From: Gammaproteobacteria bacterium
GTDB taxonomy: Bacteria; Pseudomonadota; Gammaproteobacteria; Steroidobacterales; Steroidobacteraceae
Assembly: GCA_040004115.1 (NCBI GenBank)
Contig: JBDUBO010000011.1
Coordinates: 77 to 64,076 of the forward strand
DNA: 64,000 nucleotides
Direction: 5' to 3'
The notes below the pieces were generated by a model that saw only the letters and a list, made by a program, of their open reading frames with translations, did no database searches and was not told the origin of the DNA. Shown here piece by piece: positions 27,718 through 64,000 of the stretch. Position 1 is the stretch's first letter. The number at the start of each line of letters is the position of its first letter. Both the position numbers and the translations under genes were made by a program.

Positions 27718-30282
27718 CTAAGGGCGTGGGCGCGCGCGACGCGTGGGCTCGGCGGTGTACGGATCTTCCGGCCAGTAATGCTTCGGGTATCGACCCTTCA
27801 AGTCCTTCTTGACTTCGTGATATCCGCGCTCCCAAAAACTCACGAGGTCACGGGTAATCTGCACCGGACGCCGCGCCGGCGACAGTAATTTCAGCAACAG
27901 CGGCACTCGTCCGGCGACGACGCTCGGTGTCCGGCTCAATCCGAACATTTCCTGCAGCCGCACCGACAAGGTGGGAGTGTCGCCGTCCTGGTAGTCGATC
28001 GGTATATTGGAGCCGCTCGGGACCGTGAAATGCGTCGGTGCCTCCCGCTCCAGGATCACGCCTTGTGCGTAGCTCAAACGAGATCGCAGGGCATTACTCA
28101 AGTCCATCCGCGCAAAATGCGCGCGGCGGGTGAAACCCGCGATCCACGCTGGCGCCCACGCATCGAGGCTCGCAGCAAGCGCCGCGTCGCTCACGTCAGG
28201 CCAGGGCTCCGGCGACGCGACCGCATGCTCCCGCATCAGCATCACGCGCGCCTGCCACTGCCGCAAGTCTGGGGTCCATGGCAGACCTGCCGACCCCAAT
28301 TGCCTTGCACCGTCGAGCGCCGCAGCCTGCAGCGCTTCGCTGTCGGGGTTGCGCAGCTCGCTCGACTCCAAGACCAGCGCGCCCAGACGGCGCTCGCGCC
28401 GCGCGCGGATCGCCTGGTCCCGCTCGTCCCACAGTATCGCGGAATGATCGAGGATTTGCGCCGAAAATTGCTTTTCGAGGTCCGCAATACGCACGGGTGC
28501 GGCAAGAAAAATTCGAGACTCACGTTCCGCGCCGTCCAGCTCGGCCGCGACGATGTACTCGGCCTTGGACAGTGCCTGTGGTTCGCCAAAGCGTGCGCCG
28601 CGGCCATTCGCCAGCAAGTACCGCCCGCCGTCGCCGCGCGCCTGGCCGATACGATCGGGATAGGCCCATGCCAAGAGAACTCCCGCGGCATCGTGCGGAT
28701 CCGCGGTGTCCCGCCGCTCAGGCGCGAAGCCGCGCTGCCATTGCGCAGAACTGCGCGCTGCCTGCGTCATGGCCCGCTGGTCCACGGTAATTCCCGGCGG
28801 CGGGTTGCGAACTTCGCCGCGCAACACGGCTACCCTGAGGCGCACGTCTGCGTCGCGTGCGCCAATCCCCGCACGCAAGATGTCGCGTTCGCTCAAGATG
28901 GCGGCGAGGTCGCAGGCCAGACGCGGCGCGCCGAGCGCGTCGGCCATGACGAGCATGTGCGCCAGCCTCGGGTGGAGTCCGAGCTTCGCCAGCTTTCGTC
29001 CGTGCGTTGTGACCCGAGCGGTGGAATCGATGGCTTCGAGCTGCCGCAACAAATCGCGTGCCTGCGCCAGCGGCGCTGCGGGCGGCGGATCGAGCCATGA
29101 AAGACTGGCCGCGTCCATTGCACCCCAGCAGCTCAATTCCAGCGCCAGCGGGGCGAGGTCGGCATGCAAGATTTCCGGCGCCGTCTGCGGCGCCAGCGAT
29201 GCCTGTGTCCCCTCTGACCATAAACGATAGCAGTGGCCGGCGCTCAAGCGGCCGGCGCGCCCGCGGCGCTGATCGGCGGCCGCCTGCGACACCTTGGTGG
29301 TCACGAGGCGGCTCATGCCGGTAGCGGGATCAAATTCCGCATAACGGCGCAATCCCGAGTCGACGACGATGCGAATGCCTTCGATGGTCAGGCTTGTTTC
29401 CGCAATGCTCGTGGCGAGCACGATTTTTCGCCGTCCGGCGCGCGCCGGGGCAAGGGCTGCTTCTTGCGCAGCACCCTCGAGATCGCCGTACAGGGGCAGC
29501 ACGCTCACATCCCGATCAAGGCCCGCATCCTCGAGGGCTCGCTGCACCCGCCGGATCTCCGCAGCGCCGGGCAAGAAGCAGAGTATGTCGCCCTCGTGCT
29601 CGCGCAGCGCCCCGCGCACCACTTGAGCCGTTTGCTGTTCGAGAAATATCTCCGGACGCCGTGCCACGTACTGCGTCGCCACTTCGAAGCTGCGGCCGCG
29701 GGCTTCAATGATGGGTGCATCGCCGAGCGGCGCGGCGCCGCCTGCGAGCGAGGCATCTCCAAGCAGCTTGGCGATGGGCTGCAAATCCAACGTCGCCGAC
29801 ATCACCACCAGGCGCAAATCCTCGCGCAGGTTCCGCTGACTTTCGATGCACAGCGCCAAGCCCAGATCGGCATTCAGACTGCGCTCGTGAAACTCGTCAA
29901 AGATCACGCAGCCGATGCCGGCGAGCGCGCAGTCCTCTTGCAGCATGCGCGTGAGAATGCCCTCCGTGACCACTTCGATGCGGGTCTCGCGGCTCACCCG
30001 GGTTTCCAGCCGTGTGCGAAACCCCACGCGCCGTCCCACCGGCTCTCCGAGCAGGTACGCCATTCGCCCGGCAACGGCGCGCGCCGCGATGCGCCGCGGC
30101 TCGAGCATCAAGATTTTTTGTCCCGTCAGCCAGGGGCTGTCGAGCAGGAAGAGGGGCACGATGGTGCTCTTACCGGCACCTGGCGGGGCCTCGAGCAGCA
30201 CGCTGCACCGGGTTGTCAGGGCCTCGGCCAACGCCGGCAGGGCCTCATTGATCGGTAAATCGGGTAGCGGCGGTAGGCTCAC
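27718..30282 (-). CDS. hrpB: ATP-dependent RNA helicase HrpB (DEAH-box)
   Basis: 854 aa with Walker A APPGAGKST, the DEFHER box and SATL, plus HA2 and HrpB C-terminal regions. Confidence 0.95.
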   Translation of the reverse strand: MSLPPLPDLPINEALPALAEALTTRCSVLLEAPPGAGKSTIVPLFLLDSPWLTGQKILMLEPRRIAARAVAGRMAYLLGEPVGRRVGFRTRLETRVSRETRIEVVTEGILTRMLQEDCALAGIGCVIFDEFHERSLNADLGLALCIESQRNLREDLRLVVMSATLDLQPIAKLLGDASLAGGAAPLGDAPIIEARGRSFEVATQYVARRPEIFLEQQTAQVVRGALREHEGDILCFLPGAAEIRRVQRALEDAGLDRDVSVLPLYGDLEGAAQEAALAPARAGRRKIVLATSIAETSLTIEGIRIVVDSGLRRYAEFDPATGMSRLVTTKVSQAAADQRRGRAGRLSAGHCYRLWSEGTQASLAPQTAPEILHADLAPLALELSCWGAMDAASLSWLDPPPAAPLAQARDLLRQLEAIDSTARVTTHGRKLAKLGLHPRLAHMLVMADALGAPRLACDLAAILSERDILRAGIGARDADVRLRVAVLRGEVRNPPPGITVDQRAMTQAARSSAQWQRGFAPERRDTADPHDAAGVLLAWAYPDRIGQARGDGGRYLLANGRGARFGEPQALSKAEYIVAAELDGAERESRIFLAAPVRIADLEKQFSAQILDHSAILWDERDQAIRARRERRLGALVLESSELRNPDSEALQAAALDGARQLGSAGLPWTPDLRQWQARVMLMREHAVASPEPWPDVSDAALAASLDAWAPAWIAGFTRRAHFARMDLSNALRSRLSYAQGVILEREAPTHFTVPSGSNIPIDYQDGDTPTLSVRLQEMFGLSRTPSVVAGRVPLLLKLLSPARRPVQITRDLVSFWERGYHEVKKDLKGRYPKHYWPEDPYTAEPTRRARPRP

Positions 30283-30369
30283 GGATGCCTAAGATAACCC
30301 ATGGGCCGGCATCGAGATGCAGCAGGAGGAGGGGCGCGCCACGCTGTGCATGTTAAGATGCGCGCCGTC

Positions 30370-30674
30370 GGGCCTGTAGCTCAGTTGGTTAGAGCAGGGG
30401 ACTCATCAATAAATGGTGCCTTCGCATCGCAAGGTGCGAAGTGGACGGGATGAATTCAGGGAAACCTCAACAGCGTGGAGCTGCTGGCAACCCTGAGCCA
30501 AGCCGGCGGTGCACCGTCGGAAGGTGCAGAGACTACCTGAGCGCGTTCAAGTCGCGCTTAATGACAGGCTAGAGCGTCCCGCACCCCACTGGGGTGAAGA
30601 GATAGTCCACTCCCTCCGGAAACGGCGGGGCAGAGTGAATCCCTTGGTCCTCGGTTCGAGTCCGAGCGGGCCCA
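30370..30674 (+). tRNA. split tRNA gene, anticodon CAT, most like tRNA-Ile2 (lysidine/AUA-decoding); exon 1 is 30370-30406 and exon 2 is 30638-30674
   Basis: The joined exons give a 74-nt cloverleaf. Acceptor stem GGGCCTG/CGGGCCC, D stem GCTC/GAGC, anticodon stem GGGGA/TCCCT, loop CT-CAT-AA, variable loop TGGTC, T arm CTCGG-TTCGAGT-CCGAG, discriminator A. CCA is not encoded. Confidence 0.9.
30407..30637 (+). ncRNA. group I self-splicing intron (IC3-like, bacterial tRNA-intron type), ORF-less
   Basis: IGS GTG can pair with exon CAT, giving U.G at the 5' splice site. Conserved blocks are TTCAGGGAAACC...CCCTGAGCCAAGCC, GGAAGGTGCAGAGACTA and AAGAGATAGTCC. P2-P9 pairings can all be traced, P9 carries a GAAA tetraloop, and the terminal residue is G 30637. 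Confidence 0.85.
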
Positions 30675-30914
30675 CTAATTCTCGAGAGCCGGGGACGATC
30701 GGTAACGATCGGGTATCACCTACCGCTGGACCCTGCTTCCCTCCCACGTCGATTCGATCTAGTCTACGGCTACAGCCGCGGCCGCGAGATCTGTTTCGCG
30801 CGTGGTTTTCTTGAAGGGCACTCAACACCAAAAAACAATCGGCTTGCCTAACGTCGGCGATTTCACCAATGCATTCGCCAGTTAGGACGGGGAAGCCGCT
30901 AGGGGTAAAAAATC

Positions 30915-62269: not shown

Positions 62270-62829
62270 ATAACTCCGCGGCTTCGGTGCTCGGGCTGAT
62301 CTACATCGTGTCCGAGCTGGGTCTTGCCATAAGCAAACGTGCCGCCACGGGAGCGCGCGTCCAGGATCGCGGATCCTTGACCCTGCTGTGGATGGTGATC
62401 GTTGTGAGCGTCACCCTGGCGTTCAATCTCGCGTACCAATTTCCGGCGGCCGGCATGAATGCCGTCCCTGTGTTGCGAATCGTGGGAATCGTGGTGTTCG
62501 TGGCGGGGCTAGCCATTCGCTGGTATGCCATCGTGCGGCTCGGTCGATTCTTTACCGTCAACGTCGCCATTGCTGCTGATCATCGACTTATCGACACCGG
62601 CCCTTATCGGTTAGTCAGGCATCCGTCATACACGGGTGCTCTAATGGCGTTCTTGGGGCTAGGATTGTGCCTGGCCAATTGGCTGTCATTGGTGGTGATC
62701 GTTGCGCCGATATTATTGGTATTCCTGCGGCGCATGCACATCGAGGAAGCGGCGCTTCTGCAGGCCTTTGGAGATCAGTACCGGGACTATATGCGTCGCA
62801 CCAAGCGATTGATTCCGGCCATCTATTGA
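62260..62829 (+). CDS. isoprenylcysteine carboxyl methyltransferase (ICMT/PEMT)-family membrane methyltransferase
   Basis: HRLIDTGPYRLVRHPSYTGALMAFLG and EEAALLQAFGDQYRDY motifs. Confidence 0.8.
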   Translation: MPVNNSAASVLGLIYIVSELGLAISKRAATGARVQDRGSLTLLWMVIVVSVTLAFNLAYQFPAAGMNAVPVLRIVGIVVFVAGLAIRWYAIVRLGRFFTVNVAIAADHRLIDTGPYRLVRHPSYTGALMAFLGLGLCLANWLSLVVIVAPILLVFLRRMHIEEAALLQAFGDQYRDYMRRTKRLIPAIY

Positions 62830-62843
62830 ATTGTTTTGCGGAG

Positions 62844-63284
62844 ATGACAATGCACCCCTTCCCTCATCACTACGCCGTCAATGCAGCAGTTCGCCCGGTC
62901 GGCGACGTACCGTTGTCCGCCGACGGCGTCAGGATCATCGAATCGGCTCCGCCCAAGGAATTCGACGGCCCGGGCAATCAATGGTCTCCCGAGGCGCTGC
63001 TGACGGCCGCAGTCCTGGACTGCTTTGTGCTGAGTTTTCGCGCCATCGCCACGGCGTCGAAATTTCCGTGGAACAGCCTGGAGGCGCGTACTGAAGGCAC
63101 CCTGGACCGTGTCGATGGCAAAATGCGCTTCACCCGTTTCGACACGCATGCCAAGTTGCAGGTACCCGCCGGCACGGATATCGAACGCGCCAAGAAACTG
63201 CTCGAGAAGGCCGAAACCACCTGTCTGGTCGCCAACTCGCTAACCAGCGAACGTCACCTCACCGCCGAAATCGTCGCAGTCTGA
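62844..63284 (+). CDS. OsmC/Ohr-family protein
   Basis: WSPEALLTAAVLDCFVLSF and AETTCLVANSL contain the two conserved Cys of OsmC-like proteins. Start at ATG 62844 inside the supplied ORF. Confidence 0.8.
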   Translation: MTMHPFPHHYAVNAAVRPVGDVPLSADGVRIIESAPPKEFDGPGNQWSPEALLTAAVLDCFVLSFRAIATASKFPWNSLEARTEGTLDRVDGKMRFTRFDTHAKLQVPAGTDIERAKKLLEKAETTCLVANSLTSERHLTAEIVAV

Positions 63285-63332
63285 TTACGCCTACTTGGCG
63301 TTGAACCGCTTGACGGCTGGAATACTGCAAAA

Positions 63333-63395
63333 GGGGTAAGGACTCACCGGGCGGGCACTGGCGGATTCAGTGCCCGCCCGGTGAGTCCTTACCCC
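63333..63395. terminator. 27-bp perfect inverted repeat (9-nt loop); probable bidirectional terminator between the osmC-like gene and rpoD
   Basis: GGGGTAAGGACTCACCGGGCGGGCACT (63333-59) and its exact complement AGTGCCCGCCCGGTGAGTCCTTACCCC (63369-95). TTT follows on the plus strand and TTTT on the minus strand. Confidence 0.6.
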
Positions 63396-63430
63396 TTTCC
63401 CGGTGTTCCAAGCGCCGAACGGTTCGCCGA

Positions 63431-64000
<570 letters not shown>

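Follow-up and report, generated by a model that had tools for sequence, protein, structure and literature searches.

A chromosomal tRNA(CAU) gene, probably encoding tRNA-Ile2, split by an ORF-less group I intron with a P7.1-like hairpin

We analyzed a 64,000-nt stretch of gammaproteobacterial DNA (contig JBDUBO010000011.1; hereafter the window) in which an initial annotation had proposed that a tRNA(CAU) gene is interrupted within its anticodon loop. A gene cut at this place raises two questions: can it still give rise to a tRNA, and which codon would that tRNA read? Our analysis makes it very probable that the locus is a functional chromosomal tRNA-Ile2(CAU) gene, split between positions 36 and 37 by a 231-nt group I intron without an ORF.

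The Rfam covariance model Intron_gpI (RF00028), a check that the initial annotation had called for, matched positions 30394–30629 of the plus strand with 75.9 bits (gathering score 50, E 1.8e-17) and was covered over its full length (model positions 1–253 of 253). This was the sole Rfam match within the 64 kb. The claim of an ORF-less group I intron is thus borne out by a score above the gathering score, and covariation backs the fold (see below). The intron begins with C and ends with G. There is no endonuclease ORF inside it; the only ORFs overlapping the intron, 30509–30814 on the plus strand and 30547–30831 on the minus strand, extend into exon and flank. It was inserted between CUCAU and AA, after the fifth base of the anticodon loop, with a U at position −1 and a terminal G. 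This combination defines the class Ile2.5Ug, to which the window intron belongs.

Joining the two 37-nt halves gave a perfect 74-nt cloverleaf, read as tRNA(cat) by ARAGORN. We also scanned metagenome contigs with a 44-nt query made of GACTCAT joined to AATCCC...GGGCCCA, that is, the spliced junction plus the 3' exon. The exact query was found on 39 contigs, and 15 of these contain an uninterrupted gene that is identical over its whole length to the predicted product (74/74). The flawless cloverleaf that had been expected from the halves therefore exists as a real gene elsewhere. One such identical gene (L176:4302–4375) scored 71.7 bits against the tRNA model RF00005 (gathering score 29), which also answers the proposed check of the product sequence with a tRNA covariance model. 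A search of a plasmid collection returned matches to the tRNA exons only. The exon and intron coordinates, listed with the other features in Table 1, are exactly those first proposed.

Table 1. Features of the split tRNA gene and its flanks (window positions)
Feature	Positions	Strand	Evidence
Putative extended −10 element TGtTAAGAT, 10 nt upstream of tRNA position 1	30351–30359	+	Sole conserved block upstream in 14 related loci
5' exon, tRNA positions 1–36 (37 nt), 3' end is anticodon CAU	30370–30406	+	Identical to 5' half of uninterrupted genes on 15 metagenome contigs
P1: exon C34-A35-U36 and intron C1 with guide GGUG (30415–18); U30406·G30416 wobble at 5' splice site	30404–30418	+	
Group I intron, 231 nt, no ORF contained	30407–30637	+	RF00028 match, MFE z-score, pairing count in 58 homologues
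P2, 9 bp (30420–28/30433–41), L2 tetraloop GCAA (30429–32)	30420–30441	+	
P3 5' strand CGGGAUG	30446–30452	+	Pairs with 30575–81
P4 (30456–61/30491–96) around P5 (30465–66/30486–87) and P5a (30471–74/30480–83)	30456–30496	+	
P6 (30498–99/30523–24) and P6a (30503–09/30514–20, loop UGCA)	30498–30524	+	
P7 5' strand: G, bulged A30530, GACUA; predicted guanosine-binding helix	30529–30535	+	Pairs with 30603–08, invariant 58/58
P7.1-like hairpin (33 nt) between P7 and P3'	30536–30568	+	100% paired; two inner pairs covary (GC/AU/CG, GC/AU)
P3 3' strand CGUCCCG	30575–30581	+	Pairing with 30446–52
P8 (30582–87/30591–96, loop ACU), short in this genome	30582–30596	+	Four pairs covary
P7 3' strand UAGUCC, after J8/7 AAGAGA (30597–30602)	30603–30608	+	Helix count and Rfam alignment
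P9.0 (30609–11/30634–36) around P9 (30612–18/30623–29), L9 tetraloop GAAA (30619–22)	30609–30636	+	
Terminal guanosine (omega-G), 3' splice site	30637	+	Invariant G 58/58
3' exon, tRNA positions 37–73 (37 nt), starts AA	30638–30674	+	Spliced-junction matches on metagenome contigs
Terminator-like hairpin and T-rich tail, 109 nt downstream of tRNA (weak evidence)	30783–30809	+	Consensus scan

We examined the intron fold helix by helix in an alignment of 58 homologous pre-tRNAs that differ pairwise by at least 7%. The proposed pairing of the guide GTG with CAT, including the U·G wobble, held: all four P1 pairs were invariant in 58/58 sequences. P2 showed compensatory changes in 9/9 pairs and a GNRA loop in 58/58. 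This helix had been recognized correctly and its extent had not, as it had been drawn as 30420–26/30435–41 and runs to 9 bp closed by GCAA. P3 had been placed in the wrong register. The pairing GGACG/CGTCC at 30443–47/30575–79 was formed in 84.8% of alignment cells and all departures were mismatches, whereas the register 30446–52/30575–81 was paired in 99.3%, with one pair varying U·G/C-G/U-A. We rejected the Rfam-style bulges A30450 and U30577 in P3, since both residues pair and P3 becomes a continuous 7-bp helix. P4 was confirmed, with 100% pairing, and P5 and P5a covary. The stem originally labeled P6 is genuine (compensatory changes in 6/7 pairs, 99% of cells paired) but is P6a; P6 proper is the short helix below it.

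The second half of the core gave a similar picture. The P7 helix GACTA/TAGTC stood as proposed and was invariant in 58/58, although its sixth pair, G30529–C30608, had been overlooked. Its sequence is identical to that of Azoarcus-type introns. As a member of the group I family, the intron would bind guanosine in P7. P8 was correctly placed, and its length varied widely among homologues. The P9 hairpin with its GAAA loop was also confirmed, with covariation in 6/7 pairs and a GAAA loop in 57/58 sequences; in the window P9 contains a single U-C mismatch (30615/30626) that is common to the closest relatives. Two of the three P9.0 pairs covary (AU/GU/GC and UA/GC). The 3'-terminal G had likewise been assigned to the right residue, and a terminal G followed by AA was found in 118 of the 126 delimited family members among the matches listed. 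The P7.1-like hairpin consists of an outer stem CCUG/CAGG, an inner stem (30540–45/30553–58) and a conserved 3' bulge, UAAUGA (30559–64). Along with P5/P5a and P9.0, this hairpin was missing from the first list of helices. Nothing convincing emerged when P10 was sought by eye.

How strong is the evidence for this fold? In the 58 homologues, the proposed 94-pair structure was paired in 96.1% of cells, and in 40 pairs both sides had changed in a compensatory way. The observed values were not reached in any of 500 shuffles, and slid controls gave 36–47%. P2, P5a, P6a, P8, P9.0, P9 and the inner stem of P7.1 covary. P1 is invariant, and P4, P6, P7 and the outer P7.1 stem are invariant or variable on one side in this set. 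P3, P4, P6, P7 and the outer P7.1 stem are therefore compatible with the fold and unproved within the 58 sequences; support for P3 and P4 comes from compensatory differences with Azoarcus-type introns, for example UCAGGG/CCCUGA in P4 of the window against UCGGCG/CGCCGA. Thermodynamic folding of the intron alone recovered most helices, with an MFE z-score of −3.09. The group I core is complete: a P4-P6 stack and a P3-P7-P8-P9 domain with the P3/P7 pseudoknot, all helices being present.

The gene sits among ordinary chromosomal genes (hrpB, a BNR-repeat protein, an amino-acid permease, GST, sulfite reductase, DsbD and IlvA). Its neighbor hrpB (27718–30282, minus strand) is divergent from it. We found no integrase or phage genes among the neighbors. 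A search for a second copy of the tRNA 3' end, which would mark an island as its att repeat, was also negative. The upstream DNA of 14 related loci could not be aligned apart from the block TGnTAnnAT, and this conservation suggests that TGtTAAGAT acts as a promoter in the window. A sigma-70 consensus scan of the plus strand gave no full −35/−10 match and recognized no −35 element. Downstream, the terminator-like hairpin showed no conservation in relatives. The C-terminus of rpoD is encoded at the window end (63431–64000, minus strand). The place directly downstream of rpoD holds tRNA-Ile2 in many relatives, and ileX in E. coli. In the window this site is occupied by an OsmC-like gene, with no tRNA and no tRNA or intron remnant.

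Is the split gene a decaying relic, its intron splicing lost or poor, with AUA read instead by an intron-less tRNA-Ile2, or by a tRNA-Ile(UAU), encoded at another place in the genome? Our view is limited to 64 kb of the genome, and other organisms do have this very tRNA as an uninterrupted gene. Moreover, CCA is not encoded (CTA follows the 3' exon) and P9 carries one mismatch. However, the P9 mismatch and the missing CCA are common to the closest relatives and are therefore lineage traits rather than decay; CCA is also unencoded in several close relatives and encoded in others. The exons and the intron core follow the consensus of the 58 homologues and carry no substitution of their own at any conserved column. 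The sole departure of the window from columns with a consensus of at least 90% is two extra bases in the P7.1 hairpin, and thus there is no sign of decay. Family-wide compensatory changes show selection on the fold, the promoter element TGnTAnnAT is conserved, and the window has no tRNA gene at the ancestral location of tRNA-Ile2, downstream of rpoD. We consider a relic very unlikely and keep the reading of a functional split gene.

Which tRNA does the gene encode? The acceptor stem, GGGCCUG/CGGGCCC, contains G3-C70, C4-G69 and C5-G68. G3 or C70 excludes tRNA-Met and tRNA-fMet, while C4-G69 and C5-G68 are characteristic of tRNA-Ile(CAU), and E. coli TilS requires them (Silva et al. 2006, PMC1635315). 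The D arm has C11-G24 and U12-A23, and the first pair is G1-C72. The initiator marks A11-U24, G12-C23 (A11-T24 and G12-C23 in PMC1635315) and C1xA72 are all absent, so the exclusion of an initiator tRNA, originally proposed from G1-C72, holds. Among 5,426 E. coli genomes the best full-length match was a gene annotated tRNA-Ile, with 84% identity. Given the published discriminators and this match, the sequence identifies the host tRNA as tRNA-Ile2, a predicted lysidine/TilS substrate, in agreement with the initial annotation. AUA accounts for 24 of 5,023 codons and is present in 11 of the 13 genes checked, and thus a tRNA-Ile2 function is needed. The PP-loop motif SGGxDS of a tilS-like gene was found nowhere within the 64-kb window.

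The D arm and the anticodon loop are common to the Met and Ile2 tRNAs of E. coli, and ARAGORN labels every CAT anticodon Met; both points would suit an elongator tRNA-Met(CAU) as the host. This identity is very improbable. It runs against G3-C70, a complete negative discriminator for Met and fMet, against the E. coli TilS determinants C4-G69 and C5-G68 (PMC1635315), and against the tRNA-Ile annotation of the E. coli gene that matches best over the full length. At many loci and on metagenome contigs, tRNA(CAU) genes that are related or identical, some split and some uninterrupted, also lie downstream of rpoD. As the window gene is hrpB-linked, this last argument rests on its near-identity to the rpoD-linked genes. 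Finally, the class is filed as Ile2.5Ug by Williams (2020). We therefore retain tRNA-Ile2 as the predicted host.

The initial annotation had warned that such genes are easily missed or mis-annotated, and this proved correct. In default mode ARAGORN detected no tRNA over the 64-kb window, and because default tRNA finding misses the split gene the genome would appear to be without a tRNA-Ile2. The intron mode (ARAGORN -i), another of the checks proposed, did find the gene, but it shifted the intron 2 nt upstream and called a tRNA-Gln(CTG). Splice sites at these positions (...CUC, intron, UGAAUCC...) would likewise delimit 231 nt with a final G, but they place C instead of U before the 5' splice site and so break the invariant U·G wobble, they give a tRNA-Gln(CUG) an Ile2-like acceptor stem, they come from a program known to misplace group I introns, and they are already refuted by the uninterrupted homologues, whose anticodon loop reads CTCATAA and not CTCTGAA, which fixes the junction at 30406/30638 and leaves the shifted sites a negligible probability.

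We compared the window intron with the Azoarcus intron, which it had been said to resemble closely. In vitro self-splicing is documented for the Azoarcus pre-tRNA-Ile, in which a 205-nt intron separates exons of 39 nt (5') and 40 nt (3') (PMC13168695); its host is a betaproteobacterium. Among the matches listed, loci L040, L041, L108, L109 and L134 are of the Azoarcus type. The resemblance holds for the host tRNA type, for the insertion point between CAU and AA with a GUG guide that pairs with the anticodon, and for the core: both introns share the P7 and J6/7 sequence GAAGGUGYAGAGACUA...AUAGUCC, GNRA loops on P2 and P9, the P9.0 helix, the terminal G and the lack of an ORF. It does not extend to the periphery. 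In Azoarcus, P7 is connected to P3' by the 3-nt linker GAC, whereas the window intron has the 33-nt P7.1 hairpin there. P5 reads CCUAAG...UAUGG in the Azoarcus type (CCTAAGC...TATGG at the loci) and CCUCAAC...CUGG in the window, i.e. CCUCAAC...GCUGCUGG. The former motif, which we take to be the L9 receptor, is thus absent from the window intron. The P3 and P4 sequences show compensatory differences, and P9.0 and the 3' tail differ as well (CAAACCGG against GCAGAGUG). Permissive local BLAST with the Azoarcus seed gave a best piece of 72% identity over 89 nt (44 bits), and a global alignment with free end gaps gave 146 identical columns on the 208-nt seed. Among the matches listed, 95 of 118 cleanly delimited tRNA(CAU) introns carry the P7.1 hairpin and the other 23, which are Azoarcus-like, do not. 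The window intron is not of the compact Azoarcus architecture; the Azoarcus intron lacks P7.1, and the two introns therefore belong to distinct structural lineages that occupy one site.

The hairpin itself is not new. We rejected the idea that it is an undescribed element because the seed alignment of Williams (2020) holds the same module, with an A-rich 3' bulge, in other tRNA introns (Lys.2Ug, Asn.4Ug, Phe.2Ug and Leu.1Ug); it is also drawn in the consensus structure. Pam37.Asn.4Ug, Dba165.Lys.2Ug, Mba55.Phe.2Ug and Mga42.Leu.1Ug have the same hairpin between P7 and P3', with the bulge AAUAA or UAAUAA where the window has UAAUGA. These four introns also share with the window GRUG-AAUUC at P3/J3/4, AGCGYCC in P3' and a GAUGAGAUAGUCC-like J8/7-P7'. 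In local BLAST the window intron scored best against Pam37 (54 bits), followed by Dba165 (48 bits), and slightly lower against Azoarcus (44 bits). The P7.1-bearing seed introns are about 62–66% identical to the window intron over the aligned parts; they lie in other tRNAs and at other anticodon-loop positions, and some have a second hairpin, P7.2. The Anabaena/Nostoc tRNA-Leu(UAA) intron (Leu.3Ug, cyanobacterial and plastid) is likewise an ORF-less group I intron of the anticodon loop with a similar core. It differs in its tRNA, in its site within the anticodon and in the lack of P7.1, and it was a weaker match (33 bits).

An intron with the same module was also found in phages. Klebsiella/Escherichia jumbo phages (e.g. 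OU509535) carry an unannotated tRNA(CAU) group I intron at the same insertion site. It is 228 nt long, has the same P7.1 module and matches RF00028 with 89.9 bits; it is part of a tRNA cluster of the phage, has an AT-rich sequence and shares ~70% identity with the window sequence over 240 nt.

How widespread are such introns? We scanned 185,579 species genomes for ACTCAT followed, after a gap of 98–128 nt, by GAAGGTGYAGAGACTA. The pattern demands an exact core motif, and therefore the counts are lower bounds that give no frequency: at least 120 loci were found, among the matches listed mostly in Gamma- and Betaproteobacteria. The matches listed include Steroidobacteraceae, Woeseiaceae, Rhodanobacter, Dyella, Lysobacter, Luteimonas, Polynucleobacter, Rubrivivax and Azonexus, and also a few Fibrobacter and Verrucomicrobia. 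Another 21 loci came from viral contigs. Williams (2020, bioRxiv 10.1101/2020.01.27.920355) counted 5,292 group-I-split tRNA genes in ~80,000 genomes and places Ile2.5Ug among the four classical classes of tRNA introns in bacteria, all of them filed as IC3. These numbers do not support the statement that split tRNAs are rare in bacteria.

The closest loci among the matches listed belong to Steroidobacteraceae and unclassified gammaproteobacterial MAGs; they are 95–97% identical over 305 nt and keep the hrpB synteny. The host is thus probably a Steroidobacteraceae-like gammaproteobacterium. Some hrpB-linked copies are uninterrupted (L176, L162, L172, L164 and L151), with an hrpB 65–72% identical to that of the window. 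In the closer hrpB-linked relatives L098, L045 and L099, hrpB is ~75–80% identical (in L099 over its hrpB end) and all have the intron. Thus, the presence or absence of the intron varies at one and the same locus across the group.

Conservation and homology suggest that the intron splices, and we propose the following pathway. The gene would be transcribed from its own extended −10 promoter. The intron would fold into its P3-P9 and P4-P6 domains, as covariation indicates, and the GNRA loops L2 and L9 and the extra P7.1 hairpin may brace these domains through tertiary contacts. P1 would form from the guide GGUG, the anticodon CAU and the first intron base, a pairing conserved throughout the alignment. 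As in other members of the family, an external guanosine bound by P7 would attack after U36 of the U·G wobble. P9.0 would place G30637 in the same pocket, and the exons, kept together by the anticodon stem, would become ligated. The predicted product is a 74-nt tRNA equal in sequence to real uninterrupted genes. This tRNA would then need cleavage by RNase P, CCA addition and modification of C34 to lysidine by TilS, after which it should read AUA.

Taken together, these results leave the current understanding of split tRNA-Ile2 genes unchanged. Knowledge of the class goes back to the early 1990s, and it has been catalogued at scale. Only mildly new are the P7.1-bearing lineage at the tRNA-Ile2 site and the fact that jumbo phages carry it; a division into two lineages is apparently undiscussed in the accessible literature. 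A wider reading is possible, and we hold it tentatively, as somewhat short of probable. Two intron lineages may occupy one tRNA-Ile2 site: a compact Azoarcus type in Betaproteobacteria and a P7.1-bearing type, including the window intron, that predominates in Gammaproteobacteria (95/118 delimited introns among the matches listed) and also resides in jumbo-phage tRNA clusters. The site might have been colonized repeatedly, or introns might have been exchanged between phages and bacteria, with the GUG-CAU pairing as the means of targeting, and the ribozyme might be the sole route to AUA decoding here. If the window gene is the sole copy, AUA decoding in this organism would hinge on an RNA-catalyzed step. 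For studies of RNA structure, the P7.1-bearing relatives supply a large number of natural variants on the much-studied Azoarcus system, all of which possess an additional peripheral module.

Where does tRNA-Ile2 reside in related genomes? In many of the fetched loci, and on metagenome contigs, the gene lies 0.2–1.7 kb downstream of rpoD, with or without the intron. At the equivalent position in the window we found neither a tRNA nor a tRNA remnant (see the table for the genes present). The tRNA-Ile2 gene seems either to have relocated to the hrpB locus, 33 kb away, or to have persisted there alone. Elsewhere in the window, the kinase-TPR gene falls within the stretch of minimum GC (0.567 versus about 0.61).

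Protein-coding features of the window near rpoD and elsewhere
Feature	Position	Strand	Remark
RpoD, C-terminal 189 aa	63431-64000	minus	window ends inside rpoD
OsmC-like gene	within 62667-63430		occupies the position downstream of rpoD
Kinase-TPR fusion protein (Ser/Thr protein kinase with TPR repeats), 816 aa	9693-12143	minus	

The Steroidobacteraceae also carry another intron-bearing variant of tRNA-Ile2, observed in L029, L039, L049, L053, L056, L058, L066, L094 and other loci. Its D arm reads GCACAGCGGTTAGTGC, and the U12-A23 pair is swapped to A12-U23. The linkage of the two variants is distinct: the second one is linked to rpoD, whereas the window variant is linked to hrpB.

Intron-split tRNA(CAU) genes were also found in phages. 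A Klebsiella phage (OU509535.1, 335376-335677, corresponding to positions 603-904 of our locus L182) carries an unannotated tRNA(CAU) with a 228-nt group I intron that matches the Rfam group I intron model RF00028 with 89.9 bits. In this and further Klebsiella and Escherichia jumbo phages (matches H2-H7), the split gene sits inside a tRNA cluster, and the jumbo-phage intron shares with the window intron both the insertion site and the P7.1 hairpin. A cluster of ~25 tRNA genes adjoins an intron-bearing tRNA(CAU) on the viral-classed contig IMGVR_UViG_3300009149_000039 (L017, 4800-14100).

Two metagenome contigs, L173 (2882-2925) and L174 (10632-10675), hold only the 3' 44 nt of tRNA-Ile2, preceded by unrelated DNA. 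These fragments look like an att-type repeat that may come from an element integrated in the tRNA gene. In six other loci (L038, L046, L047, L106, L113 and L138), ARAGORN delimited a 3' exon of 54–60 nt, and the intron end violates the G-then-AA rule. These odd exons reflect either mis-delimitation or an additional insertion near the 3' splice site.

Finally, we inspected the 3' end of the window tRNA gene (30674-30677). Unlike the same-clade relatives L037, L098 and L052, which encode the 3' CCA, the window gene does not encode it, and neither do its close relatives L099, L082, L101 and L074. Maturation of the window tRNA requires a CCA-adding enzyme.
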